Positions 11,331-23,942 of a stretch of 24,000 bases of DNA are shown here, in pieces. The notes beneath the pieces are model-generated. The model ran no database searches, was not told the DNA's origin, and saw only the letters and a list, made by a program, of their open reading frames with translations. This DNA comes from Candidatus Thioglobus perditus (lineage in GTDB: Bacteria > Pseudomonadota > Gammaproteobacteria > PS1 > Pseudothioglobaceae), in assembly GCA_002909145.1 (NCBI GenBank), contig PNQY01000179.1, positions 10,939 through 34,938 of the forward strand, given 5' to 3'. Numbering within the stretch: position 1 is the first letter of the stretch; each line of letters begins with the position of its first letter. The position numbers were made by a program, and so were the translations under genes.

Positions 11331-11780
11331 ATGGATAAAGTTCAAGCAATTACCTGTAAAGCCACCAGTGATTTAGAAGTTAGCATTCCTGATAATGAAG
11401 GCAGGAATGTTGTCTTGTACTTTTATCCAAAAGATTCAACCCCAGGGTGCACTACTGAAGGGCAAGATTTTAGAGATAATCACCAAGCATTTATAGATTC
11501 AAACACAGTTGTATATGGCGTAAGTCGTGACAAAATGAAATCTCATGAAAACTTTAAAGCTAAGCAAAGCTTTCCATTTGAGTTAATTAGCGACCCTGAT
11601 GAAACATTGTGTAATCTATTTGGTGTTATTCAACTCAAAAAACTATACGGACGCGAATATATGGGTATTGTAAGATCAACTTTTTTAATTGATAAGAATG
11701 GTAATATTATTAAACACTGGGATAAAGTGAAAGTTAAAGGTCATGTTGATGAAGTCCTTGAACAGGTAAACAAATTATGA
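11331..11780 (+). CDS. bcp: peroxiredoxin Bcp/PrxQ (thiol peroxidase)
   Basis: 149 aa with the peroxidatic motif [14 protein letters not shown]. The residue at +5 from the peroxidatic Cys is Gln rather than Cys. The stop overlaps the ubiG ATG (ATGA). Confidence 0.85.
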
Positions 11781-12475
11781 GCAATGTAGATTTTAATGAA
11801 GTAGATAAGTTCGCACAACTAGCTTCACGCTGGTGGGATAAAGACTCCGAGTTTAAACCATTACACGATATAAACCCGCTAAGGTTAAAATACATCAAAG
11901 AGCAAGTCAGCGAACCTCTAAAAGATAAGAAAATTCTAGATGTTGGCTGTGGTGGTGGCATATTAAGTGAGGCAATGGCACTTGAAGGAGCGAACGTTAC
12001 TGGTATTGATATGGCTGAAGCCGGACTAGAAGTCGCAAAACTTCACTTGCTTGAATCTGAGCTTAATATCGATTATCACAAGATTCCAGTTGAAGAATTT
12101 GCAGAGCAGCACCCCGGTAGTTTTGACTTGGTAACCTGTCTTGAAATGCTAGAACACGTGCCTGATCCAAGTTCAATTATTAAAGCCTGTGCAAAATTAG
12201 TAAAGCCTGGAGGCCAGGTATTTTTCTCCACCATTAATCGCAATACCAAATCTTATCTATTTGCTATTATTGGTGCTGAATATATTCTTAAACTTCTACC
12301 TCAAGGCACGCATGACTTTGACAAATTTATTCAACCAGCTGAAATAGATGAATGGGCTAGAGAATCTAGCCTTGCACTTAAAAGTATGATTGGCATGACT
12401 TATAATCCACTAACTAAAGTATATAAACTAGAGAATGATGTTAGTGTTAACTACTTATGCTCTTACAGTAAGTAA
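11777..12475 (+). CDS. ubiG: ubiquinone biosynthesis O-methyltransferase UbiG
   Basis: 232 aa. N-terminal [29 protein letters not shown], the SAM-binding motif [13 protein letters not shown], and [10 protein letters not shown]. Confidence 0.9.
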
Positions 12476-12489
12476 GGCATTTGATTCTA

Positions 12490-12519
12490 AATCTATATTA
12501 TTGATTTTTAATATAGATT
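12490..12519. repeat. perfect 11-bp inverted repeat (aatctatatta / taatatagatt) with an 8-nt spacer
   Basis: Read directly: 12490-12500 is the reverse complement of 12509-12519. It lies between the ubiG stop and the hydrolase start. The stem is almost all A/T and no T-tract follows, so it could be a weak terminator or an operator. Confidence 0.4.
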
Positions 12520-12527
12520 GATGTAGA

Positions 12528-13256
12528 ATGGCAAGTATGAGAAAAATACTTGCTAGCATTTTATTATTTATATCTATCAATTCATTTGCAGATGTTGTTG
12601 TCTTAGTGCATGGATATGATAGCAAGCCAAGCGTCTGGTTAAAACACGGAATATACCAAAACCTTAGCCAAAAGTTTAATAATAAGCACGTTATCTATAC
12701 TGCACAGCTGCCGAATAAAGCTCCTATTGCTATACAGGCAAATATTCTATCCAAACAATTAGAAGGATTAAAAAAGCAATACAATCAGCCAATTATTCTG
12801 GTTGGACATTCGGCTGGTGGAGTTGTAGCTAGATACCTAACAGTACATAGGAAGGGCCTAAACATTAAAGGATTAATTACTATATCTGCACCACACCTAG
12901 GCTCAAACTTAGCATTTGTTAGCAATATTGTTAGCGGTGTTGTGCCGTTTACCAGTATTATTCCAGTGTTTGATTCTTTGGATGAGGCTAAAGGCTTATA
13001 TGGCAATATTCGTAGAAGGTCAATCTTCTTAAAACAACTAAATCATCAACAACACCCAGATATTTGCTACGTATCTATTATTCGTGAAAAGTCATTAGTT
13101 AGTGATATGGTAAGTATGCAGCACTCTCAAAATATGAACAGTGTTCCGGCACTTAGAGGCAAGTCTTACGTAATAGGATCACACAAACATCATAGTTTAA
13201 ATAGATTTGATACAAACCGCATCGTCCAAGCTATTAATGTGTGTGATAAAAAATAA
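12528..13256 (+). CDS. secreted alpha/beta-fold hydrolase (esterase/lipase-like)
   Basis: 242 aa with a signal peptide (MRKILASILLFISINSFA; the start may be the ATG at 12537). VVLVHGY oxyanion-type block and GHSAGG nucleophile elbow. The substrate is unknown. Confidence 0.6.
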   Translation: MASMRKILASILLFISINSFADVVVLVHGYDSKPSVWLKHGIYQNLSQKFNNKHVIYTAQLPNKAPIAIQANILSKQLEGLKKQYNQPIILVGHSAGGVVARYLTVHRKGLNIKGLITISAPHLGSNLAFVSNIVSGVVPFTSIIPVFDSLDEAKGLYGNIRRRSIFLKQLNHQQHPDICYVSIIREKSLVSDMVSMQHSQNMNSVPALRGKSYVIGSHKHHSLNRFDTNRIVQAINVCDKK

Positions 13257-13272
13257 ATCTATAAACCAGATC

Positions 13273-13656
13273 TTAATCAACAGTTTCTAGAACCACAAAT
13301 GCAACTGCATTGTACTTCTCATCAGACAGGCTTAGATGCGCATGCTTAATATCTTTATTTAACAAGTGTAATCGTAATTTCTCACTAGGAATAAAGTAAG
13401 GTTTACCTTCTTCATTATTGCGTACAGTTAAATCTTGAAAGCTAACAATTTTGCCGATTCCGGTGCCTAGGGCTTTAGCAAATGCCTCCTTAGCGGCAAA
13501 GCGTTTTGCACAGTATGAAGCGCTGTCGCCCTTGTTTGCAAATAAAGCCCGCTCATGCTCTGAGAGTACACGCCTAATAAAGCCGTCCTTATTTTTATTA
13601 AGTATCTGCTCAACACGTTCAATATTAATAATATCTGTACCAACCCCAAATATCAC
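13273..13656 (-). CDS. acpS: holo-[acyl-carrier-protein] synthase (AcpS)
   Basis: 127 aa with GTG start overlapping the pdxJ stop (GTGA). Motifs [14 protein letters not shown] and [16 protein letters not shown]. Confidence 0.9.
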
Positions 13657-14378
13657 TTTCTTGCTCCTAATATTAATTCTTTCATTTCACGTGTAGCAGA
13701 CTCAAGACCAACAAACACAGCTCTAGCAATAATAGAATGACCAATATTAAGTTCTACAATTTCTGGTAGCTTTGCAATTGCAAGAGTATTTTCCATTGTT
13801 AACCCATGTCCAGCATTGACTTGCAAACCAATAGAGTGCGCATAAGTTGCCATTTCTTTAATTCGTATAAATTCTGCTTGTTGTTCATCACCTGTAGTGT
13901 CTGCATAATGCCCAGTATGAAGCTCGATAACTGGAGCGCCACATTCAAGTGCCGCATCAATTTGATCTTTTTGTGCATCAATAAATAATGATACAACCAC
14001 ATTAGACTCGCCTAGCTGAGCACAGACATCGCTCATTCTATTAATTTGTGAGGCAACATCAAGACCACCTTCTGTGGTTAACTCCTCGCGCTTTTCCGGC
14101 ACCAAACAACAGTCTTGTGGCTTAATTTTGCTAGCTATTGAAACCATTTCATCAGTGGCAGCCATCTCTAGATTCATTTTTGTAGTTAATTTATTGCGCA
14201 AAATCTCAACATCAATGTCTTGGATATGACGCCTATCTTCACGCAAATGCAAAGTTATACTGTCTGCACCAGATTTTTCACATAACAAGGCGCCTTCAAC
14301 AGGTGAGGGATAATCTGTACCTCTGGCCTGTCTTAAAGTTGCAATATGATCAATGTTAACACCTAGATAAATACTCAC
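13653..14378 (-). CDS. pdxJ: pyridoxine 5'-phosphate synthase (PdxJ)
   Basis: 241 aa with GTG start. Motifs [36 protein letters not shown] and VNAGHGL. Confidence 0.95.
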
Positions 14379-14379
14379 C

Positions 14380-15072
14380 TTAACCCCTAGTAAAAAATAA
14401 AGACCTGCTCTTTAGTGGCTTGTTGCCTAATAAAAAACCTAAGCGCTGTCTATTTAAATCTCTACATACCTTTAATTGTTCCAAATTTGGAATATTATCA
14501 ATATCCTCAATTAACAATTGGTTTAATAATTTTCCGGATATTTTACCAGTATGGCTTTGTGCAAAACCTAATTGCGATTGATATTCATAATTCATATCTT
14601 GATTAATATTATTGCCATTAATATCATTTGCAAAATCCAGTGCATAACCAAGCTCAGATAATAAGTTGTTCTCAAACAATCTTAATGACCAATGATTAAA
14701 CCGGCCCTCTAAAGAAGATATTCTACTTATAAATTGCTGGTAGACCTTAAATAGCTTAATATGCTGGTCTTGATCAAACAACAATCTAGATATTAGCTCA
14801 TTGGCATACATTCCTAATATTAACCCCTCACCTTTCAAACTTCTAGGAATATCATCAACCTCCCAATTGCTTATAGTTTTCAGCTCCCCTTTTCCAGAAA
14901 ATGAGATATTGAGATGCTGAAACATTTGAATATTGGTTTTTGATCCCCTAAGACCTCTACCAACCAGACGAATCTTGCCATATTCGTAAGTAAAAAAATC
15001 AAGCAGTAGCGAATTATTCTTGAAAGCTCGACGATGAATTAAAAAAGCTGGAGTAAGGTCAACTTTATTCAT
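14380..15072 (-). CDS. recO: DNA repair protein RecO
   Basis: 230 aa. N-terminal OB-fold-like block ([33 protein letters not shown]) and the canonical position between era and pdxJ. Confidence 0.85.
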
Positions 15073-15082
15073 TTAATAGTGT

Positions 15083-15967
15083 TTAATCGTAACCTAACGA
15101 AGCCAATGCACGCTTGTCATCTGACCAGCCGCTTGACACTTTTACCCATAATTTAAGAAAGACTTTTCTTTCTAGAAACCCTTCTATGCTCTTGCGTGCT
15201 TCGGTACCTATTAATTTAAGCATTTCACCTTTATTGCCAATTACAATATTTTTTTGCGACTCTTTGTCAACAAAAATACGCGCAGATATTCTTTGCATAT
15301 TACCATCTAACTCAAACTGTTCAATTTCCACAGTAAGGTCATATGGCAATTCATCTTCTAAATGACGCATAAGCTTTTCTCTAATAAACTCAGCAACAAT
15401 AAATTTTTCACTTCTATCAGTTATATAGTCTGGATCGAAAATAACACCTTGCTCTGGCAAATGCCTCAATAGCAATTTTCTTAATGCAATCGTGTCCTTT
15501 TTCCTAAATGCAGAAAGTGGAAACATATCTGTTGGCTGATATTTTTCAGATATTTTCTCTAAAAATGGCAGTACACTTTGTGGAGAGGCTAAGTTGTCAA
15601 TCTTATTAATACACAAGATAACCGGCACATCAACTTGAGACACATGTTCCAAAACTCGCATATCTTCTTTTGTCCATTTTCCAGCCTCAATTAACCAAAG
15701 AATCATATCAACATCTTTAATGCTGGAGCTTGCCGCCCTATTCATGTAAGAGTTAATGGCTTTTTTGTTGCCCATATGAATACCAGGAGTATCAACAAAT
15801 ACCATTTGATAATCATCACTAGTATCAATTGCATGAATACGATGCCTTGTGGTTTGTGGACGATGCGAAGTGATAGATAATTTTTGACCAATCAACTCGT
15901 TAATGAGCGTAGATTTACCAACATTTGGACGCCCTACTACTGCAATAAAACCAGACTTAAAACTCAT
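15083..15967 (-). CDS. era: GTPase Era
   Basis: 294 aa. Motifs GRPNVGKSTL, DTPG and NKID, with a C-terminal KH domain (VIGNKGEMLKLIG). Confidence 0.96.
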   Translation of the reverse strand: MSFKSGFIAVVGRPNVGKSTLINELIGQKLSITSHRPQTTRHRIHAIDTSDDYQMVFVDTPGIHMGNKKAINSYMNRAASSSIKDVDMILWLIEAGKWTKEDMRVLEHVSQVDVPVILCINKIDNLASPQSVLPFLEKISEKYQPTDMFPLSAFRKKDTIALRKLLLRHLPEQGVIFDPDYITDRSEKFIVAEFIREKLMRHLEDELPYDLTVEIEQFELDGNMQRISARIFVDKESQKNIVIGNKGEMLKLIGTEARKSIEGFLERKVFLKLWVKVSSGWSDDKRALASLGYD

Positions 15968-15969
15968 AA

Positions 15970-16686
15970 TTATTTAGCTTCCTTTAATTTATCTAGTAAT
16001 ATTTGAGCACATGATTGTTCAGCTCTTTTAATACTTTTGGCTTTTTGGTCCACTTGTATGTTTTGATCTTTTAAATAGCAGTTGATCGTAAAAACAGCAT
16101 TGTGATCCTTGCCAACTGTTTTCGTTAGCTCGTATTTTGGTAGTGCTTTACCTCTTTTTTGCAAATACTCTTGCAACTGGGTTTTTGGATCTTTAAGTGA
16201 ATCATTTGGATTTATATCTTTTAACAAATCTTTAAATAAATTCAGAATTACAGTGTTAGTAGTTTCAAAATCAGCATCTAATAGCACAGCCCCAAAAATA
16301 GCCTCTACCGCATCCGCCTGAATAGATTCGCGACGATAGCCACCGCTTTTCAACTCACCAGCACCTAGGATTAAAATATCTGACAACTCTAATGATGAGC
16401 CTAATTGAGCAAGAGTTTTACCTCTAACCAAATGCGATCTTAACCTAGAAAGCTTACCTTCATCAACATCTGGAAAGCGTTTATACAATTCACGAGAAAT
16501 TACAATACCCAAAACACTGTCACCCAAGAACTCGAGGCGTTCATTATTATTCTTGCCTATACTGCGGTGCGTAAGTGCAAGTTTTAATAAGGACAAATCC
16601 TTAAACTGATAATTAATTTTATTTTGTAATTTTTCCACTACTTTGTATTGGGTTTTAATGCATTTAATGCGTCTATAATTAACCAA
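15970..16686 (-). CDS. rnc: ribonuclease III
   Basis: RNase III signature NERLEFLGDSVLG and a C-terminal dsRNA-binding domain. The track start is TTG at 16686. An in-frame GTG at 16638 would give a more canonical N-terminus (MEKLQNKINYQF...), so the start is uncertain. Confidence 0.9.
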   Translation of the reverse strand: MVNYRRIKCIKTQYKVVEKLQNKINYQFKDLSLLKLALTHRSIGKNNNERLEFLGDSVLGIVISRELYKRFPDVDEGKLSRLRSHLVRGKTLAQLGSSLELSDILILGAGELKSGGYRRESIQADAVEAIFGAVLLDADFETTNTVILNLFKDLLKDINPNDSLKDPKTQLQEYLQKRGKALPKYELTKTVGKDHNAVFTINCYLKDQNIQVDQKAKSIKRAEQSCAQILLDKLKEAK

Positions 16687-16720
16687 TATTATAACTCAAG
16701 CTAATAATTAACTATTAACC

Positions 16721-17392
16721 ATGTTTTGGCAAGAAGACTCTAAAAAGCAACATTTTACTCTGCCTGATACCATACAAGATGCAGTGTTTAATATACATTC
16801 TAAAGTTCTACCAATTGATCATAGTTTTTTATTATCACAGGCACTTCTAAATCACCTTCCATGGCTGGAAGAGGTTAATGCAGGTGTGCACAGTATTGGT
16901 GTGCACGATGGCAATGGATGGAAGCAAGACCATAAAAATGGGCTTTACTACCCCTCTAGACGCTCTAAATTAGTCATTAGGATGCCAAAAGAAAATCTTA
17001 TTGAGGCTAATAAGCTTGTTGGAAAAACTCTAGACTTAGGTAAATATAAAATAGATATAGTTAAAGCATTAAAACCAAAACTACTTAGTAGTATGCAAGT
17101 TGTCTTTGCAAAAGCTGTAGCCTGTGATCAGAACACAGACGAGGATGACTTTCTACAAACCTCATACAATCAACTTAAAGATTTAGGCATTCAACCTAAA
17201 AAAATGCTTGCAGGACTTGAGAGTAGTATTAAAACCGATACAGCAAGTTTGCATGCTAGATCTTTAATGGTTGCAGACCTTACTAAACAAGAATCAGTAA
17301 AACTACAAGAGCACGGCATTGGAAAACACAGGTTGCTTGGCTGTGGCTTATTTATTCCACATAAAGATATTGAAAGTGCTGATGAATCTTAA
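16721..17392 (+). CDS. stand-alone Cas6/Cmx6-like RAMP-superfamily protein (COG5551-like; older annotations say 'DNA repair protein')
   Basis: 223 aa. From memory it resembles proteins annotated 'type I-MYXAN CRISPR-associated protein Cas6/Cmx6', which start M.WQED and end ...GCG.F.PHK. A C-terminal glycine-rich loop GIGKHRLLGCG (G-x-G-x5-G-x-G, nt 17315-17347) is the RAMP hallmark. No array or other cas genes are nearby. This needs HMM confirmation. Confidence 0.5.
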   Translation: MFWQEDSKKQHFTLPDTIQDAVFNIHSKVLPIDHSFLLSQALLNHLPWLEEVNAGVHSIGVHDGNGWKQDHKNGLYYPSRRSKLVIRMPKENLIEANKLVGKTLDLGKYKIDIVKALKPKLLSSMQVVFAKAVACDQNTDEDDFLQTSYNQLKDLGIQPKKMLAGLESSIKTDTASLHARSLMVADLTKQESVKLQEHGIGKHRLLGCGLFIPHKDIESADES

Positions 17393-17456
17393 CTTGCTTT
17401 AATTAACACCTAGCATTACAATTTATACACCTACATACAACCACTGGGGAGAGGTT

Positions 17457-18488
17457 ATGCGTTTATTAATATTAGCTTTACTAATATTTACATCATTTTT
17501 ATCTACAGCTGCAGAACATAAAAAGGAAGGCGATTTCCTAGGTGCAAAAATAGTTGATGAGTTGCCAAATTGGTTTAAGTCCACATTTATGGATTTCTCT
17601 GAAGACTTAGAAGAAGCCGCGGATGAAGACCGTCATATTATGATTTACTTTCATCAAAATGGCTGTCCATACTGCGCTAAATTAGTAGAAGACAATTTTC
17701 ATGATGAAAAATTGGTTGCAAAATTACAAAAAGATTTTGATGTAATTGAAACCAATATGTGGGGTGATCGTGAACTTACCGATTGGACTGGAGAGGAGTT
17801 TAGTGAAAAAGAATTTTCAATCAAAATGAAAATTCAATTTACACCTACTTTAATATTTTTAAATTCAAAAGGTAAAAGTGTTTTAAGATTAAATGGCTAT
17901 CAGTCTATTGAGAAAATGCAGGCTACACTTGATTACATCTCCGGCAAGAATTATCTTAATCAATCTTATGCAAAATACATTAATAATCTAAAGAAAAATA
18001 AATCTGGCAAGCTTAATCAAAACTCTATTTTTGAGACTGGACCGCATATGCTATCACGCAATCAAAATATGCCAGCAAGCAAATATTTAGCTGTATTTTT
18101 TGAAGAGCCAAATTGTAGTGAGTGTGATTCTTTTTATCAAAATCTAATGCCACTTGATAAAACACAGGATTATTTGAAGAAAATGCAAGTCGTACGCTTT
18201 AACGCTCTATCCAATGAAAAACTCATAACACCAAATGGCAAGCTTACCACCGCTAAAGATTGGTACGACGAGTTAAAACTAACTTACAAGCCAGCTATTG
18301 TATTTTTTGATAAAAATGGATCTGAAATTATTAGAAAAGACGCATATTTCAAACAATTTCACTTTCATAGTATTATGACTTATGTGTTGACAGAGTCTTA
18401 CAAAACACAACCAAGTTTTCAGCGCTACATTGAGCACAAAGCTGACAAGATAAGAGAGCAAGGAATAACTGTTAATATTTGGGAATAA
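17457..18488 (+). CDS. secreted protein with two thioredoxin-like folds (CPYC and CSEC motifs)
   Basis: 343 aa with a good SD (GGGGAGAGG) and a signal peptide (MRLLILALLIFTSFLSTAA). Domain 1 is IMIYFHQNGCPYCAKL with a cis-Pro loop at FTPTLIF. Domain 2 is LAVFFEEPNCSECDSF with KPAIVFF. It is SoxW/DsbD-gamma-like by eye. Confidence 0.65.
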   Translation: MRLLILALLIFTSFLSTAAEHKKEGDFLGAKIVDELPNWFKSTFMDFSEDLEEAADEDRHIMIYFHQNGCPYCAKLVEDNFHDEKLVAKLQKDFDVIETNMWGDRELTDWTGEEFSEKEFSIKMKIQFTPTLIFLNSKGKSVLRLNGYQSIEKMQATLDYISGKNYLNQSYAKYINNLKKNKSGKLNQNSIFETGPHMLSRNQNMPASKYLAVFFEEPNCSECDSFYQNLMPLDKTQDYLKKMQVVRFNALSNEKLITPNGKLTTAKDWYDELKLTYKPAIVFFDKNGSEIIRKDAYFKQFHFHSIMTYVLTESYKTQPSFQRYIEHKADKIREQGITVNIWE

Positions 18489-18494
18489 TATAAT

Positions 18495-18824
18495 TTAAAC
18501 TTTTTTAACAAATTCTGATTTTAACTTCATAGCTCCAAACCCAGAAATTTTGCAATCAATATTATGATCACCCTCGCATAGACGGATATTTTTCACCTTA
18601 GTGCCAACTTTAACAGCCGACGAAGTGCCTTTTATTTTTAGATCTTTAATAATGCTTACTGTGTCTCCATCAGTAAGTGTATTGCCGTTTGCGTCTTTTA
18701 CTATCTCTTCTTGTTCGTTCAAATCATCTGCTGAGAACTCATAAGCACACTCAGGACAAACCAAAAGATTGCCATCTTCATACACATACTTAGAGTCACA
18801 CTTAGGGCAATTAGGTAAGCTCAT
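18495..18824 (-). CDS. yjdM: zinc-ribbon protein YjdM/PhnA
   Basis: 109 aa, nearly collinear with E. coli YjdM: [81 protein letters not shown]. Confidence 0.9.
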
Positions 18825-18833
18825 AATTATCTC

Positions 18834-19688
18834 TTATACAGTAAATGGATATTTAATCGGATCATGATGCTCGTAACCCACCAACTCAAAATCATCCATG
18901 GTTACCCATGTTTCTAGGTCTTTTAGAGTTTTAATTTCTGGATTAATCTTTAGTGATGGTAGCGCTAACGGTTTACGATCAACCTGTTCATTTTTAAAAA
19001 TATCTACTTGATTTTCATAAAGGTGCACATTGGATAAATGGTGACGCATTTTTCGCGCTTTTTTTCCCGTAATTTGTGCAGTAATCATAAGCAAAAATGC
19101 AACCTGAAAATGATTAAATGGCTGACCAAGTGCATAGTCTGATGAACGCTGATAGCTTTCCAGATAAAGATCATCACCTAACAAATTAAAATGATGTGTG
19201 TGCATACATGCCGGTAAGCACGCACGATGAATGAGATTTGGATGGTTAAAAGTCATAATCTCGCGTCTATCATCAATACCATTTGACAGATCAGTTACAA
19301 TCTTTTTATATTGGTCTAATGGTTCATCATCTTCAATGCCTGGAAATGCTCGCCCTATCACCCCATAACACATACCCATATCATCTTCACCTTTACGGTG
19401 TGGATTATCTAGCCAGGCTTGGTTGTCATTGGCATTGGCATTCCAAGTATTACAGCCAATGGCTCGAAATTGCGCAGCAGAATCGTAGCCTCGAATATAG
19501 CCCAGCATTTCAGCAATGGCAGATTTCCAGAAGAGTTTTTTAGTGGTAACCACAGGCACAGTGCCATCAGATAAATCGTGCTCAAAAGTCGCGCCAATAA
19601 TAGCTAATGTTTTTTGCCCTGTGCGAGCATTTTCAAGCCACACGCCTTCATCTAAAATTCTTTTTCCAATATCAATATACGCTTTCAT
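18834..19688 (-). CDS. thyA: thymidylate synthase ThyA (283-284-aa Haemophilus/Vibrio-type)
   Basis: 284 aa. Blocks WKSAIAEMLGYIRGYD, CLPACMHTHHF (catalytic Cys), YQRSSDYALGQPFN, and a C-terminus LETWVTMDDFELVGYEHHDPIKYPFTV matching my recollection of H. influenzae ThyA. The lgt TGA overlaps the thyA ATG (ATGA at 19685-19688). Confidence 0.95.
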   Translation of the reverse strand: MKAYIDIGKRILDEGVWLENARTGQKTLAIIGATFEHDLSDGTVPVVTTKKLFWKSAIAEMLGYIRGYDSAAQFRAIGCNTWNANANDNQAWLDNPHRKGEDDMGMCYGVIGRAFPGIEDDEPLDQYKKIVTDLSNGIDDRREIMTFNHPNLIHRACLPACMHTHHFNLLGDDLYLESYQRSSDYALGQPFNHFQVAFLLMITAQITGKKARKMRHHLSNVHLYENQVDIFKNEQVDRKPLALPSLKINPEIKTLKDLETWVTMDDFELVGYEHHDPIKYPFTV

Positions 19689-20455
19689 TTTTTCTCATAA
19701 GCTTTGTTTAATAGATAAATCCCCAGCATAATCATTGGCAGAGTTAAGACTTGGCCCATAGTTAACCATCCAAATGCAAGGTAACCAATATGCGCATCAG
19801 GCATGCGAACAAACTCAATTATAAATCTAAAGAGTCCATAAAAAATTAAAAATAGACTTGATATAGTCATAGACGGCCTTGGCTTATTACTAACCATCCA
19901 AAGGATGGCAAATAGTACAAATCCCTCTAAAAACGCCTCATAAAGCTGTGACGGATAACGTGAAACACCCTCAGATTTAATATACACACCCAATGAGCTA
20001 TTAGTAACCCCACCCCATAACTCACCATTAATAAAATTACCAATTCTACCAAACCCCAGTCCCAACGGCACAAGCGGTGCGACAAAATCCATGGTGGTAA
20101 AAAATGTTTTGCCATATTTACGATTAAATAAATACATGGCAAATAAAACACCTAAAAATCCTCCATGGAACGACATTCCACCACCCTGGATAGAAAAGAT
20201 TGATAGTGGATCATTCAAGAATGTAGAAAGATTATAAAACAACATATAGCCCAATCTTCCACCAACAACAGCTCCAATAGCACCATAGAAAATTAAATCT
20301 TCAATCTGCTGTTTATTCCAATGATCTAAATTCTTAGATCTGTAATTAGCTAAAAGATATGCTGACAAAAATGCCAATAGATACATTAACCCATACCAAT
20401 AAACTTGTACAAAGCCTAAGTCAAATGCAACTGGATTAATATCTGGGTAGGTCAT
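19685..20455 (-). CDS. lgt: prolipoprotein diacylglyceryl transferase (Lgt)
   Basis: 256 aa, polytopic. Motifs GGRLGYM, GGMSFHGG, FGRIGNFINGELWG and YPSQLYEAFLEG, in the conserved lgt-thyA arrangement. Confidence 0.95.
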   Translation of the reverse strand: MTYPDINPVAFDLGFVQVYWYGLMYLLAFLSAYLLANYRSKNLDHWNKQQIEDLIFYGAIGAVVGGRLGYMLFYNLSTFLNDPLSIFSIQGGGMSFHGGFLGVLFAMYLFNRKYGKTFFTTMDFVAPLVPLGLGFGRIGNFINGELWGGVTNSSLGVYIKSEGVSRYPSQLYEAFLEGFVLFAILWMVSNKPRPSMTISSLFLIFYGLFRFIIEFVRMPDAHIGYLAFGWLTMGQVLTLPMIMLGIYLLNKAYEKK

Positions 20456-20477
20456 ATTTTAAATTCTTTGATAGTGA

Positions 20478-20554
20478 TAAAGACTTCTAAATAATTTAAA
20501 CACTAAACATTCAGCTTTAAATGGCAAAATTCTATCCAGCTGAGCTGCAAACGC
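20478..20554 (-). pseudogene. decayed second copy of tRNA-Arg(CCG)
   Basis: At a constant offset of 2330 nt from the intact tRNA, the first 24 tRNA nt (20531-20554) match 20/24. The remaining 53 nt (20478-20530) align ungapped at about 27/53, with a good share of the differences being G/C in the intact copy versus A/T here. No cloverleaf can be folded. Confidence 0.45.
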
Positions 20555-20621
20555 AGATTATGTGAAAGCAGTTAAAATGCTTGTTGATTGATCTATTTGT
20601 CAGAGCAAAAAACTTTTTGCA
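20531..20621. repeat. left copy of a 91-bp direct repeat (tRNA 5' part + tRNA upstream flank + last codons of the arsR-family gene)
   Basis: Hand alignment with 22861-22951 gives 80/91 identical with no gaps. The terminal 23 bp (20599-20621, gtcagagcaaaaaactttttgca) are identical. Confidence 0.85.
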
Positions 20622-20749
20622 GTGGTTCTTGACAGTCATTATCACCTTTTTAAGTTATCCAAAATCAACTAGCTAATACGTGAGCAATCATACCATATAC
20701 ACCCAATTAACTTCCTTCCATAAAGTGCAAAAAGCACAACAAATATATC

Positions 20750-20774
20750 TCAAGTGTAGAAAGTTTACACTTGA
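20750..20774. promoter_or_regulatory. perfect 9-bp palindrome TCAAGTGTA-N7-TACACTTGA (candidate operator)
   Basis: Read directly: 20750-20758 is the reverse complement of 20766-20774. It lies in the ~300-nt non-coding leader, 150 nt upstream of the wHTH gene. Confidence 0.45.
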
Positions 20775-20874
20775 AATATAATGATGAAAAAACCTCAGGT
20801 TTTCAACCTGAACCACCCCTTAAGAACAGCGAGTAGTTCGAAATATGATGATTAAGTCAATACAGTTCAATATA

Positions 20875-20883
20875 TGCTATAAT
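20875..20883 (+). promoter_or_regulatory. extended -10 promoter element TGCTATAAT
   Basis: An exact TGnTATAAT lies 41 nt upstream of the wHTH ATG (20924). An AAGG ribosome-binding remnant sits at 20913-20916. No good -35 is present. AT-rich background makes chance matches likely. Confidence 0.35.
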
Positions 20884-20923
20884 TAAATGTAACAAATATC
20901 AATATAAATGCGAAGGCGACAAT

Positions 20924-21202
20924 ATGAAAGAAATCAGAAATCTATTTAAAATGCGTGAATCCCTTGATAGGTACGAAGAAGAAATTGGCATTGCCAAGCT
21001 TTCTAACCTTGAAAAATCAATACTGGAATTTATTGCATCTACCGATAACCCAACAATTACTTTAATTACTAAAACAGACTATTTTAAAAAATATTCATTC
21101 TCATCAATTAAAAGAGGGGTTAATTCACTTATTGAGTACAAGCTTGTTAGACAAGATATATCACAAGAAGACAAAAGAAATAAATTTTTAGTTTGCACTT
21201 GA
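20924..21202 (+). CDS. small winged-helix (MarR-like, truncated) DNA-binding protein
   Basis: 92 aa. LSNLEKSILEFIASTDNPTITLITKTDYFKKYSFSSIKRGVNSLIEYKLVRQDISQEDKRNKFLV follows the MarR wHTH pattern (helix-turn-helix, then the wing R..D..D.R...L). It ends right after the wing, so it lacks the usual C-terminal dimerisation helices. Confidence 0.55.
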   Translation: MKEIRNLFKMRESLDRYEEEIGIAKLSNLEKSILEFIASTDNPTITLITKTDYFKKYSFSSIKRGVNSLIEYKLVRQDISQEDKRNKFLVCT

Positions 21203-21777
21203 TAGCGCACCTGGTGTTATCATTTATAAAGCTAATTAAAATTAATTTAATTGTATTAATTGCAATAGCTTTAGTCTTTTACGTAACCATTTTATTAGGG
21301 GACGGTCCCGGAAAGCTCGACACATATTTAAAATTTATGATGGGTGCAAAAATTCTGCTTTTATTAACTTTTGGTTTTGCAGCAGTCCCTGGAATTATTA
21401 TTGCATTCGCATTTATCGCAACCAATTACTCTCCATTAATTGTGGACAATTTTGGGGTGGTGATATTCACTCTTATTCATACCATAGTACCAATTAGTGC
21501 TATACATTTAATGAATATCACTAAAGTATCTAATTTTATAGATCTAACAAATATAGACTTCCGTCATATAATGTTTTTAGTACTATTTGCTTCACTATTC
21601 TCAAGTATTTTCAAATACATTTTGATTGAAGAGTTTACTAATTTAGAAATCAATGGAGGGTTTTTTATATGGAAGTATTTCATATCTAATTCACTTGGTG
21701 GATTAGTTTTAATATACTTTGTGCTGAGAACTATTCCTTATGCGCTTTCAAAGCTTGGTTACCAATTAAATAACTAG
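21193..21777 (+). CDS. hypothetical polytopic membrane protein (about 5 TM), paralog-like to the next gene
   Basis: 194 aa. It has no ATG start (TTG at 21193, with alternatives TTG 21199 and GTG 21214) and overlaps the wHTH gene by 10 nt in another frame. I count five hydrophobic segments. The C-terminal segment FISNSLGGLVLIYFVLR mirrors FLPGDIIGGIVFLLTSV of the next ORF. Confidence 0.5.
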   Translation: MHLIAHLVLSFIKLIKINLIVLIAIALVFYVTILLGDGPGKLDTYLKFMMGAKILLLLTFGFAAVPGIIIAFAFIATNYSPLIVDNFGVVIFTLIHTIVPISAIHLMNITKVSNFIDLTNIDFRHIMFLVLFASLFSSIFKYILIEEFTNLEINGGFFIWKYFISNSLGGLVLIYFVLRTIPYALSKLGYQLNN

Positions 21778-21779
21778 AA

Positions 21780-22373
21780 ATGCATCTACTTTTAATAAAT
21801 ATCAAAGCCTTCCTCATTGTATTTTTATCTTATTTCATTGTTAATGTTATGCTTAATTTTGAAATTTTTCAAAATATTATCTTCTTTACTAAAGACTTTA
21901 ACCCTACTGTTGGCTTCCTTTTGTATTTACCAATTGGAGCAGTACTATTGAATTACTTGCTATATGGTAAAAAAGTCATATTAATTATTTCTGCCACAGT
22001 AATTTCGTACGGAATTTACAATGAACTCAAAAGTCATATCTTAATTGGATATTCAATTGTTGGAATATTTGGCCCGTTATTGGCGATATGTTTAGTTGAA
22101 AGATTTAAACTTATTGATTTTAAAAAATTCCCAAATACTCCAGTCAAAAGTTTATTGTTTCTGTGTGTTGTTGCGGCGGTAATAAATACTACTGGTAAAT
22201 TTATAGTCTATTACTCCTACCCCTATAGTGATGCTGCTATAAGTTGGTTTGATGGCGGACCAACTACTTTCTTATTAACCTTTCTGCCTGGTGATATTAT
22301 TGGTGGTATTGTGTTTCTTTTAACAAGTGTGTTTGTTATCAGATACTTTCATTTAGAAGACATTGACGCCTAA
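21780..22373 (+). CDS. hypothetical polytopic membrane protein (about 6 TM), faintly MASE1-like
   Basis: 197 aa with ATG 2 nt after the previous stop. The pattern LPIGAVLL...GIFGPLLAICLVERF...FLPGDIIGGIVFLL reminds me of MASE1-type membrane sensor domains. This is unverified. Confidence 0.55.
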   Translation: MHLLLINIKAFLIVFLSYFIVNVMLNFEIFQNIIFFTKDFNPTVGFLLYLPIGAVLLNYLLYGKKVILIISATVISYGIYNELKSHILIGYSIVGIFGPLLAICLVERFKLIDFKKFPNTPVKSLLFLCVVAAVINTTGKFIVYYSYPYSDAAISWFDGGPTTFLLTFLPGDIIGGIVFLLTSVFVIRYFHLEDIDA

Positions 22374-22458: not shown

Positions 22459-22779
22459 TTATGATTTATAAACATTAACTAAAATAACTCCTATAACAAT
22501 TAAAAACAATCCAAAAATAGTTGGCCAATTTAACATCTGTTTATAGAAAAAATAACTTAGTATTGCTATAGAAAAAACTCCTATACCTGACCAAGACGCA
22601 TAAACAATTGATAGGGGTAATTTTTGAGAAACAATAGCAAGAAAATAGAAAGATACTATATATGAAGTGAACAAAATAGTAGTAGGCAATATTTTGGTAA
22701 AATTTTGCGATGCAGGTAACATCATCGTACCCAAGACTTCAAACACAATTGCTCCAAAGAGTATTAAATATACATTCAT
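22459..22779 (-). CDS. small multidrug resistance (SMR/EmrE-like) transporter
   Basis: 106 aa with 4 TM segments. The essential TM1 glutamate is present in GAIVFEVLGTMML, YASWSGIGV corresponds to EmrE AIWSGVG, and the length and topology are typical. Confidence 0.85.
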   Translation of the reverse strand: MNVYLILFGAIVFEVLGTMMLPASQNFTKILPTTILFTSYIVSFYFLAIVSQKLPLSIVYASWSGIGVFSIAILSYFFYKQMLNWPTIFGLFLIVIGVILVNVYKS

Positions 22780-22807: not shown

Positions 22808-22884
22808 TGGTGCGCTCGACAGAATTCGAATCTGCGACATTTGGCTTCGGAGGCCAACACTCTATCCAGCTGAGCTACGAGCGC
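22808..22884 (-). tRNA. tRNA-Arg (anticodon CCG), CCA-encoded
   Basis: Reverse complement is GCGCTCGTAGCTCAGCTGGATAGAGTGTTGGCCTCCGAAGCCAAATGTCGCAGATTCGAATTCTGTCGAGCGCACCA. It folds as a cloverleaf: 7-bp acceptor stem (GCGCTCG/CGAGCGC), D arm, anticodon stem TTGGC/GCCAA with loop CTCCGAA, and T arm GCAGA-TTCGAAT-TCTGT. Confidence 0.92.
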
Positions 22885-22951
22885 AAATTATGCGGAAGTA
22901 GTTAAAATGTTTGTTTATTGATTTATTCGTCAGAGCAAAAAACTTTTTGCA
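22861..22951. repeat. right copy of the 91-bp direct repeat
   Basis: See 20531-20621. It covers tRNA nt 1-24, the 38-nt gap, and the last 8 codons plus stop of the ArsR-family gene. Confidence 0.85.
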
Positions 22952-23231
22952 TATTGGCAACTAATTTCAAAATTTTTGCATCTTTAACTTTACATAAAAT
23001 TTTGTTACCATCACGCCGCGATTCTACAATTTCTTTGGTTCTAAGAATATCAATATGCTGTGAAATATTAGACTGAGAAGACCCTACTTGTTTTACAATT
23101 TCAAGTACTGGTAATTCTTCATTTTTTAGTGCGCACAGAATCTTTAAACGCAACGGATGTGCCATTGCTTTTAAAGCTCTAGTGGCCTTTTCAATATCCT
23201 CTTCTTTCTCTAAAAGTGTCATGTCGCCCAT
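22923..23231 (-). CDS. ArsR/SmtB-family transcriptional regulator
   Basis: 102 aa with SD GGGAGAG upstream. Family pattern LKAMAHPLRLKILCALKNEELPVLEIVKQVGSSQSNISQHIDILRTKEIV. Cysteines occur at LCAL, ILCKV and FCSDE. The canonical ELCVCD metal site is absent. Confidence 0.85.
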   Translation of the reverse strand: MGDMTLLEKEEDIEKATRALKAMAHPLRLKILCALKNEELPVLEIVKQVGSSQSNISQHIDILRTKEIVESRRDGNKILCKVKDAKILKLVANMQKVFCSDE

Positions 23232-23253: not shown

Positions 23254-23838
23254 TTAAATTCTACCCAGCATTCCATAAATGCCATATCTTCTAGCTTTTA
23301 TTAACACCATCTTTTGGTAATAATTAGTTAGACTATCATTGTTAAGAACAATATCAAATATTTGCCAATTTTCTTCTTTGTTTTGATGGAATAGCAGATC
23401 AATATATATAGGATATGATGAATATCCATTAACTCTAAGTTGTACAGCTATAGAGCCACCCATTACTGGTCTAGCAGAAATGAACTGGAAAGATGTAGAG
23501 TTTGCCTGAGATAATCTTGTTAATAGTGTTGAAATAATGTTTTTCTTTAGCTTTCCTGAAAAGAACCTAACCTCGTCTTGGCTTAAGCTATTATTAGTAA
23601 CCAATAACACCTCATTAGCAATATGTTCAAAATCAAACATTGGAGATATTTCTTTATCAACCAAAAAATTCATCATTTGAGGTGAATAAGCTGCAGCAGT
23701 TGTAAGTTGATTAAGCTTTACTATAGCTGACTGTATGGCCTGAACCGGTCCGCTTTCTTGTGATTCCTCTTCTTCAGCGAATAAGCCTAATGAAAACAAC
23801 ATTGTTAAAGCTAATAAAATTACATTAAATCTTCTCAT
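23254..23838 (-). CDS. second MlaC/Ttg2D-like periplasmic lipid-binding protein
   Basis: I prefer the ATG at 23838 (MRRFNVILLALTMLFSLGLFA signal peptide) because GGAGAAAAA precedes it; the track start at 23868 is 10 codons upstream. Family-like blocks are EISPMFDFEHIANEVL and NWQIFDIVLNNDSLTNYYQ. Family assignment is by eye. Confidence 0.55.
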   Translation of the reverse strand: MRRFNVILLALTMLFSLGLFAEEEESQESGPVQAIQSAIVKLNQLTTAAAYSPQMMNFLVDKEISPMFDFEHIANEVLLVTNNSLSQDEVRFFSGKLKKNIISTLLTRLSQANSTSFQFISARPVMGGSIAVQLRVNGYSSYPIYIDLLFHQNKEENWQIFDIVLNNDSLTNYYQKMVLIKARRYGIYGMLGRI

Positions 23839-23942
23839 TTTTTCTCCATTATATAAAAACAAAACCAAGTAAAATCAAACTCAATATTGTAGGTGTTTTC
23901 ACAGTATTATATTTAAACTTTTTATAAGTAAATGATTATATT

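Follow-up and report, generated by a model that had tools for sequence, protein, structure and literature searches.

The DNA analysed here, referred to as the window, is a 24,000-nucleotide (nt) stretch of Candidatus Thioglobus perditus (assembly GCA_002909145.1, contig PNQY01000179.1, positions 10,939–34,938 of the forward strand). It contains three consecutive plus-strand genes, A, B and C, which encode a minimal, MarR-like winged helix-turn-helix (wHTH) protein and two paralogous polytopic membrane proteins. The trio represents a module that is specific to the SUP05/Thioglobaceae clade, and we tentatively read it, at a probability of roughly one in three, as a split one-component sensor-regulator, with A under the control of B and C, which would respond to a cue at the level of the membrane or envelope. 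The genes, with the putative signals preceding them, are located as follows:

20873–20883, plus strand: candidate promoter of the extended −10 type, TATGCTATAAT (TG at 20875–20876, TATAAT at 20878–20883), about 40 nt 5′ of A
20912–20916, plus strand: Shine-Dalgarno-like GAAGG, read from the sequence, 7 nt 5′ of the ATG of A
20924–21202, plus strand: gene A, mini winged-helix protein, 92 amino acids (aa), ATG start (from the list of open reading frames, ORFs)
21214–21777, plus strand: gene B, polytopic membrane protein, 187 aa, GTG start (the mechanical ORF is 21193–21777, 194 aa, with a TTG start)
21780–22373, plus strand: gene C, polytopic membrane protein, 197 aa, ATG start, 5–6 transmembrane (TM) helices

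A, B and C are real conserved genes and not chance ORFs, since their order recurs in ~110 independent loci, and this order is kept down to 40–45% identity for A and 25–35% for the membrane proteins. Between the window and the sister type of locus (L002; 63–66% identical), the ratio of non-synonymous to synonymous substitution (dN/dS) is 0.26–0.29 for each of the three genes. An earlier note, made from the sequence alone, had described three ORFs on the same strand, and these are present in the ORF list at the coordinates it gave; the 2-nt gap that it placed between the middle ORF and C is likewise real. With C starting only 2 nt past the stop codon of B, translational coupling of C is suggested.

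The same note had let the middle gene begin inside the wHTH gene, with an overlap of 10 nt and without an ATG. Only the last of these points holds: the start codon is a GTG that is conserved in the orthologs and lies downstream of A, most likely at 21214, so that A and B in the window type are separated by 11 nt. In the sister lineage, A ends with TAA, which is followed by TAC TAA and then by a GTG that aligns with GTG 21214 of the window; the in-frame TAA abutting this codon, together with gene callers that assign 187 aa to B, makes 21214 the most likely start. The apparent overlap arises only when the first TTG is used as the start codon.

Upstream of A, the extended −10 block is the sole stretch that the window shares letter for letter with the 65%-identical sister lineage, whose homology with the window starts ~60 nt 5′ of the ATG of A. 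From its sequence, the block may function as a promoter; the TGnTATAAT candidate was missed by a simple −35/−10 scan of the window. The position of the Shine-Dalgarno-like GAAGG is occupied by GAGG in the sister lineage. A 21-nt complementarity between the ribosome-binding region of A and the coding region of B was also seen, for which inspection by eye gave no obvious counterpart in the sister lineage.

None of the window proteins has a significant match in Pfam, NCBIfam or PADLOC, in keeping with the description of the trio as uncharacterised. Profile searches had been named at the outset as a way to overturn that description, and they returned no confident match to a well-characterised family for any of the three. 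In PADLOC-DB v2, B and C have no match and A has only chance-level matches to CARF profiles (E 0.016–0.025).

The A protein consists of an N-terminal helix, a helix-turn-helix (HTH; ITxITK..YFxKYSxSSIKRxV) and a wing with a DKRxK motif. In Pfam, the window protein gives only a weak match to HTH_27 (E 0.14), below thresholds; among 14 diverse homologs, 11 match SarA/Rot, six match MarR_2 (best E 5e-6), six MarR (1e-5) and five Penicillinase_R. The best matches of A among the PDB sequences are the MarR-family protein 3oop (E 0.004) and 4em0, with the recognition helix and the D-K-R wing aligned; beyond MarR-level matches, the profile of the A family found only spurious prion-protein ones in the same database. 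The initial description of A as a truncated MarR-like wHTH is supported, A being most likely a winged helix of the MarR clan that ends directly after the wing. It appears to share with MarR/SarA regulators the HTH and a β-wing with the D-x-R motif. However, MarR proteins comprise ~140–150 aa and have C-terminal helices, α5–α6, that complete the dimer interface and ligand pocket, whereas all A homologs have 92–97 aa, lack these helices and terminate 5–10 residues past the wing. Because the helices used for dimerisation and ligand binding in MarR are missing, A alone is unlikely to be a small-molecule sensor. Homologs of A are kept in ~107 loci.

Lack of conservation of the trio as a unit had been set beforehand as grounds for abandoning the proposal; the unit is found in ~110 loci in SUP05/Thioglobaceae genomes and marine metagenomes. 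Word-indexed homolog searches recovered only two lineages, 98–99% and 61–66% identical, the latter including Candidatus Thioglobus autotrophicus (CP137632, CP137633); the order A, B, C is kept in the two of them, and a 27-sequence profile gave the same five proteins. A scan of one genome per species with the A profile yielded 19 loci, of which 13 are from entries titled SUP05, Ca. Thioglobus, Ca. Ruthturnera or Bathymodiolus thiotrophic symbiont and six from metagenome-assembled genomes (MAGs) labelled Gamma- or Proteobacteria, and a metagenome scan added 80 further loci. Local hidden Markov models (HMMs) identify 140 A-type ORFs in 107 loci and 211 membrane-family ORFs in 102 loci. An array comprises one or two regulators followed by zero to four membrane paralogs of ~185–200 aa on the same strand, with convergent membrane genes in L046 as an exception to the strand rule, and no other gene recurs inside. 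A 75-aa ORF within two arrays (L101, L104) was rejected as probably spurious; it overlaps the neighbouring family ORF and has no family assignment. When four membrane-family proteins were traced to their DNA, an A homolog or another family member was directly upstream in all four cases, and each of them was preceded by a wHTH gene.

The majority of arrays occupy one chromosomal slot, between hemE-trpA-accD-(FKBP)-ispH-pfkB and mfd-maf-folA-gltB, with mfd and maf on the minus strand; 48 of the 59 multi-gene metagenomic loci and nine genome loci are of this form. At its smallest, the slot holds a lone regulator (L021, L027, L088), at its largest two regulators with four paralogs (L018), and tandem regulator-membrane units as well as decayed copies are also present. 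The 5′ leader of the majority form contains a small hairpin ~10–30 nt 5′ of the regulator ATG, of which the loop and 3′ arm hold the Shine-Dalgarno sequence (CCTCT-GAGG-AGAGG). It was seen in L015, L019, L024, L028, L029, L031, L053, L071, L086, L099 and others, with arms that covary (e.g., ATATCT-GGGG-AGATAT in L031), and is absent from the window copy. The hairpin may serve in the control of translation or as an operator.

The trio in the window (L001) falls into a smaller clade, with A at 60% identity or more, whose copies lie outside the majority slot, and it is a relocated and probably horizontally mobile paralog of the clade-wide locus; one MAG holds both forms (L014 and L028). In the window, the trio is found between lgt and an SMR gene with tRNA-Arg. 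Other copies of the window type follow ubiD and a tRNA Pro-Arg-His cluster (L014, L041), share an island with genes for a tyrosine integrase and a helicase, again at a tRNA Pro-Arg-His cluster (L013), lie between RelB/YafQ modules and umuDC with restriction-modification (RM) genes (L003, L004), or adjoin MORN or zinc-ribbon genes (L007, L042–L044). The accessory island next to the trio in L003 (T. autotrophicus; 11460–20549) comprises umuDC, an ADP-ribosylglycohydrolase, a MazG-like protein and a restriction system of ResIII/RE_endonuc with an N6_N4 methyltransferase, with two RelB/YafQ-type modules on the opposite side; in the sister strain, L004, the right flank differs and contains Sel1/trypsin, sortase and VWA genes. 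No homolog was found by the wHTH profile in IMG/VR contigs, or by C in 50,697 phage records and 72,556 plasmids, and the module is consequently not evidently phage- or plasmid-borne.

The two membrane proteins had been suspected to derive from a gene duplication, and they are indeed paralogs with a pairwise similarity that is weak but genuine. BLASTP aligns B and C with an E-value of 0.003 over 45 residues at equivalent positions, and hhalign with 1.7e-5 over 87 columns (78% probability); both align over their full length in one 27-member family alignment and are matched by one family HMM, and intermediates such as P0021 and P0029 mix B-like and C-like motifs. A search of 1.84 billion representative sequences with a C-based profile retrieved 29 proteins at E < 1e-3. 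All but one of these are credible (28/29), stand-alone proteins of ~100–200 aa, with one 314-aa exception that has an unassigned N-terminal extension; a repetitive 522-aa match was set aside as a likely false positive. The family profile has no match among the PDB sequences.

The motifs of C are G45, LPIGA (50–54), G63-KK, GPLLAI (98–103), a basic loop (107–123), INTxGKF (135–141) and PGDIIGG (170–176), and C retains all family-conserved residues: G45, L50-P51, G53, G63, P99, K140, G171-D172 and G175-G176. B is a divergent paralog that has lost P51, G171 and D172 (LPxGA to FMMGA, and GDxxGG to SNSLGG), and its orthologs in the sister lineage are 61–63% identical. In the genomes of cultured strains (L003 10001–10549, CP137632), the B ortholog lacks LIVLN in the third hydrophobic segment and has 182 aa, compared with 187 aa in L002/L007, which may reflect relaxed constraint on a degenerate paralog. 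Outside the membrane, the family is conserved best in the strongly basic TM4–TM5 loop (F-x-L-S-N-F-F / V-S-N-F-x-D-L-x-x-I-D-F-R-H). Hydropathy and charge, with positive-inside reasoning, favour an N-in/C-in topology for C with this loop in the cytoplasm.

Few membrane input domains are as common in bacterial kinases and cyclic di-GMP enzymes as MASE1, of which the signal and the mechanism are little understood. The earlier note saw a faint resemblance to MASE1 in B and C; this resemblance emerges at the level of the family, in its relatives and in a shared motif, and fails for the window proteins themselves, which have no match. Ten of the 27 relatives match PF05231 co-linearly at model positions ~3–175 of 299, all below threshold (best 29.0 bits, E 7.5e-7, versus a gathering score of 29.8), while the MASE1 proteins PdeF, PdeA, DgcE and UhpB of E. 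coli, used as controls, cover the whole model (1–299). Aligned with the MASE1 regions of these four proteins by hhalign, the family gives E 6e-4 with 29% probability over 40 columns, where a signature of the form hydrophobic-L-P-x-G-A ... F-G-x-R/K-x-x-P-G coincides around the second hydrophobic segment; with UhpB alone the alignment is not significant (E 0.099). On these sequence comparisons, we read the B/C family as remote homologs of the N-terminal half of MASE1, and not as members of it. Like MASE1, the family is polytopic in the inner membrane with little extramembrane mass. However, MASE1 is a domain of ~300 residues with eight TM helices, of which the family proteins (182–206 aa, 5–6 helices) cover only about half; it precedes a cytoplasmic histidine kinase or GGDEF/EAL output, whereas the family proteins always lack a fused output and occur as tandem paralogs beside a wHTH gene.

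An AlphaFold2 model of C, based on the 27-sequence alignment, has six helices, with a predicted local distance difference test score (pLDDT) of 88.9 and a predicted TM-score (pTM) of 0.87; a previous model from three sequences (pLDDT 38.7) was not used in the fold search. The best Foldseek matches in the PDB are S-components of energy-coupling factor (ECF) transporters, i.e., ThiT 3rlb (TM-scores 0.58/0.64, probability 0.93), 4tkr, 5edl and PanT 4rfs, and the CbiM/NikM-type transition-metal transporter 4m5b is also among the best neighbours. All are weak (E 0.35–1.4, TM-scores 0.45–0.64), and viral structures gave no match. In size, and weakly in the six-helix bundle of the model, the family resembles the S-components of the ThiT, PanT and RibU type, but differs from them in lacking sequence similarity and nearby EcfT/EcfA genes.

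The reading of the trio as a split sensor-regulator builds on MASE1-like modules without an output domain, whose sole invariably linked partner is a wHTH protein, and on the loss from this protein of the parts with which MarR binds its ligands. In the mechanism that we propose, the trio would be a self-contained operon, transcribed from the extended −10 promoter 5′ of A, and A would repress this TGnTATAAT promoter and thus its own synthesis. B and C, probably acting as a heteromer, would perceive the membrane- or envelope-level cue, and A would dock on the basic cytoplasmic TM4–TM5 loop of B/C, whereby repression would be relieved. The genes themselves, the paralogy of B and C, the strict linkage of the two families, their restriction to one clade, the variable copy number and the relocation of the window copy are established, whereas DNA binding and autoregulation by A, its contact with B/C and the nature of the signal are what we infer. 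B and C may in addition act as effectors, in protection or transport. A physiological regulatory role fits with the array being kept by most SUP05 genomes in one syntenic core slot.

There is a precedent for such an arrangement in SdpR/SdpI of Bacillus subtilis, where the gene for a small wHTH autorepressor precedes that for a 6-TM protein by which the repressor is sequestered at the membrane, and where a conserved cytoplasmic TM4–TM5 motif of SdpI has been proposed as the docking site for the regulator (PMC2910880). The similarity lies in a small wHTH gene (~90 aa) that comes first and is closely followed by a polytopic membrane gene of ~200 aa, as in ~110 loci here, and in the equivalent TM4–TM5 loop being the best-conserved soluble element of the B/C family. 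By analogy, we propose that B/C could sequester A at the membrane. The differences are equally clear: B, C and the 27 relatives have no match to the SdpI family, the family of A matches models of the MarR/SarA clan and not ArsR (HTH_5), a linked toxin gene is missing, the membrane protein comes as two to four paralogs and not singly, and the host is a Gram-negative gammaproteobacterium.

Several observations weigh against a split sensor-regulator. The operon has no obvious effector gene. Intact wHTH genes accompany decayed or missing membrane genes in L019, L021, L027 and L088, from which it follows that A can persist without its proposed partner. Window B and C lack a MASE1 match even at E ≤ 1, the similarity to MASE1 is below threshold everywhere, and the C-based search of 1.84 billion representatives retrieved no canonical MASE1 proteins. 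The model of C resembles, if weakly, the small-molecule-binding S-components, and variable copy number, islands of tRNA, integrase, toxin-antitoxin (TA) and RM genes and a moderately relaxed constraint (dN/dS ~0.27, with higher values among close pairs) would suit immunity or defence cargo equally well. A bolder reading, which we hold to be rather unlikely, is that the module amounts to a new split one-component system, peculiar to the globally abundant SUP05 sulfur oxidisers and the symbionts related to them, in which stand-alone half-MASE1 proteins act as interchangeable sensors that turn over as birth-and-death paralogs (0–4 per array) and gate a minimal MarR-like repressor by holding it at the membrane.

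Immunity or defence cargo is an unlikely explanation in our estimate, and would have B and C protect the cell, by bacteriocin immunity or phage exclusion, with A as a mere autorepressor of the cassette and the arrays reflecting birth and death of specificities. It would account for the zero to four paralogs found among close relatives at one hot spot, for their high divergence (25–35% identity), and for the accessory contexts of window-type copies (TA, umuDC and RM genes in L003/L004, integrase and helicase in L013, and a part-duplicated tRNA in the window); all five differences between the window and a 99%-identical relative are non-synonymous (5/5), a count that is not significant. The majority form, however, is a syntenic core locus and not an island. 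Neither PADLOC nor SdpI, CPBP/Abi or other immunity families are matched, no toxin gene is linked in any locus examined, and the phage, plasmid and IMG/VR collections hold no homolog. Furthermore, the conserved intramembrane Lys and Asp and the Gly/Pro motifs suggest a site for binding rather than a passive shield.

If B and C were instead solitary S-component-like binders or transporters of micronutrients, with paralogs differing in substrate and A as their repressor, the confident model of C with S-components as its best PDB matches would be explained, as would the size of ~190 aa, the helix count and the N-in/C-in topology deduced for C; K140 and D172, which are conserved within the membrane, would be candidates for ligand binding, and MarR-type regulators commonly adjoin transporter genes. 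We nevertheless regard uptake as improbable. All Foldseek E-values are 0.35 or higher, and TM-scores of ~0.5–0.6 are easily reached by unrelated helical bundles; no S-component, BioY or CbiM family is matched in sequence, and no EcfT/EcfA gene occurs in the module, the window or the flanks of the ~110 loci. In addition, the family is confined to one clade, whereas vitamin S-component families are broadly distributed, and B lacks the conserved Asp and Pro.

It is also quite improbable that A regulates other genes on its own, as a small nucleoid- or SarA-like factor whose membrane neighbours are unrelated and merely share its transcript. Intact A genes in loci whose membrane genes have decayed or are missing (L019, L021, L027, L088), tandem A-A pairs (L020, L058, L084) and a frequently adjacent HU gene speak for such independence; on the other hand, linkage is essentially universal and travels with the module to at least five genomic contexts, and duplications copy A-membrane units jointly (L017, L018, L069–L072).

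Finally, the suggestion in the earlier note that A and B are, or become by programmed frameshifting, a single membrane-anchored transcription factor is rejected on comparative data as highly implausible, although the mechanical B ORF of the window begins within A in the −1 frame and a near-slippery A_TTT_TTA occurs at 21184–21190, beyond the last stop in the B frame (21181), so that a −1 slip would yield a fusion in the window: the two frames differ in the window and are the same in the L002 type, where TAA-TAC-TAA splits them and a −1 slip runs into TAG after three codons, majority-form A and B are 40–120 nt apart, no conserved recoding signal is present, no fused protein occurs among the matches from 1.84 billion representatives, and the conservation of TTT-TTA is explained by that of the wing residues KFLV.

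No description of the module was found, and searches of the literature for a connection of MASE1 with S-components or SUP05 were empty, so the module appears undescribed. It combines known kinds anew, a MASE1-like input module and a MarR-like wHTH, in an unfused, halved and arrayed form; to our knowledge, MASE1 is otherwise known only as a membrane input module fused to outputs, i.e., histidine kinases and GGDEF/EAL enzymes. The B/C family would be a naturally minimal MASE1, a half domain that is unfused and paired with a 92-aa predicted DNA-binding protein, and the module could be a tractable system for studying what MASE1 senses and how the signal is passed on. If the split sensor-regulator is correct, it would offer a first way into the function of the N-terminal half of MASE1; if the module is plain regulated membrane cargo, it would be a clade-specific family of modest general interest. 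Among the members of the host clade are mussel symbionts as well as sulfur oxidisers of key importance in oxygen-minimum zones and vent plumes, and since most of its streamlined genomes keep one slot with strain-variable copy number, the array may mark niche- or strain-specific sensing or protection.

The remainder of the window is ordinary core chromosome, with uvrC, a murA-like gene, hisGD, ffh, lepA, rnc-era-recO-pdxJ-acpS, thyA and lgt. The trio itself is bordered by the following features:

20507–20620, minus strand: left copy of a direct repeat, a decayed tRNA-Arg(CCG) promoter with the first ~46 nt of the gene and no T-arm, ~50 nt upstream of lgt
22459–22779, minus strand: gene for an SMR-family small multidrug transporter (Pfam)
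22808–22884, minus strand: intact tRNA-Arg(CCG) gene (ARAGORN)
22837–22950, minus strand: right repeat copy, made up of the 5′ portion of the intact tRNA-Arg(CCG) gene and ~66 nt upstream
22923–23231, minus strand: ArsR-family wHTH gene

The repeat was detected as 94 nt at 79% identity and extends to ~114 nt at ~80% in a gapped alignment, and its copies flank a segment of ~2.2 kb in which the trio and SMR lie. In the left copy, no tRNA is called by ARAGORN or Rfam. As the 5′ and not the 3′ part of the tRNA is duplicated, the repeat is not a classic tRNA-att footprint; lgt may be transcribed from the duplicated tRNA promoter. The SMR and ArsR genes were considered as parts of the module and rejected, being absent from all other loci; flanking tRNA-Arg, they form a second neighbourhood of a small regulator and a membrane protein beside the trio.

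Within the 468-bp spacer between lgt and the trio are two terminator-like hairpins with T-runs (20744–20780 and 20794–20812, minus strand), oriented to stop minus-strand transcription through the trio region, and terminator-like sites are enriched in the lgt/trio region (five found, 0.9 expected). Elsewhere in the window, a 223-aa protein matching the Pfam family 'Cas6 Crispr' (PF09559, E 1.3e-47) is encoded at 16721–17392 on the plus strand, as a lone gene with rnc-era-recO-pdxJ-acpS on one side and a thioredoxin-like gene on the other; further cas genes or a CRISPR array were not noticed in the window, where no dedicated search was made. Two MlaC-family paralogs are present within the 24 kb, at 2232–2891 on the plus strand and at 23254–23868 on the minus strand.

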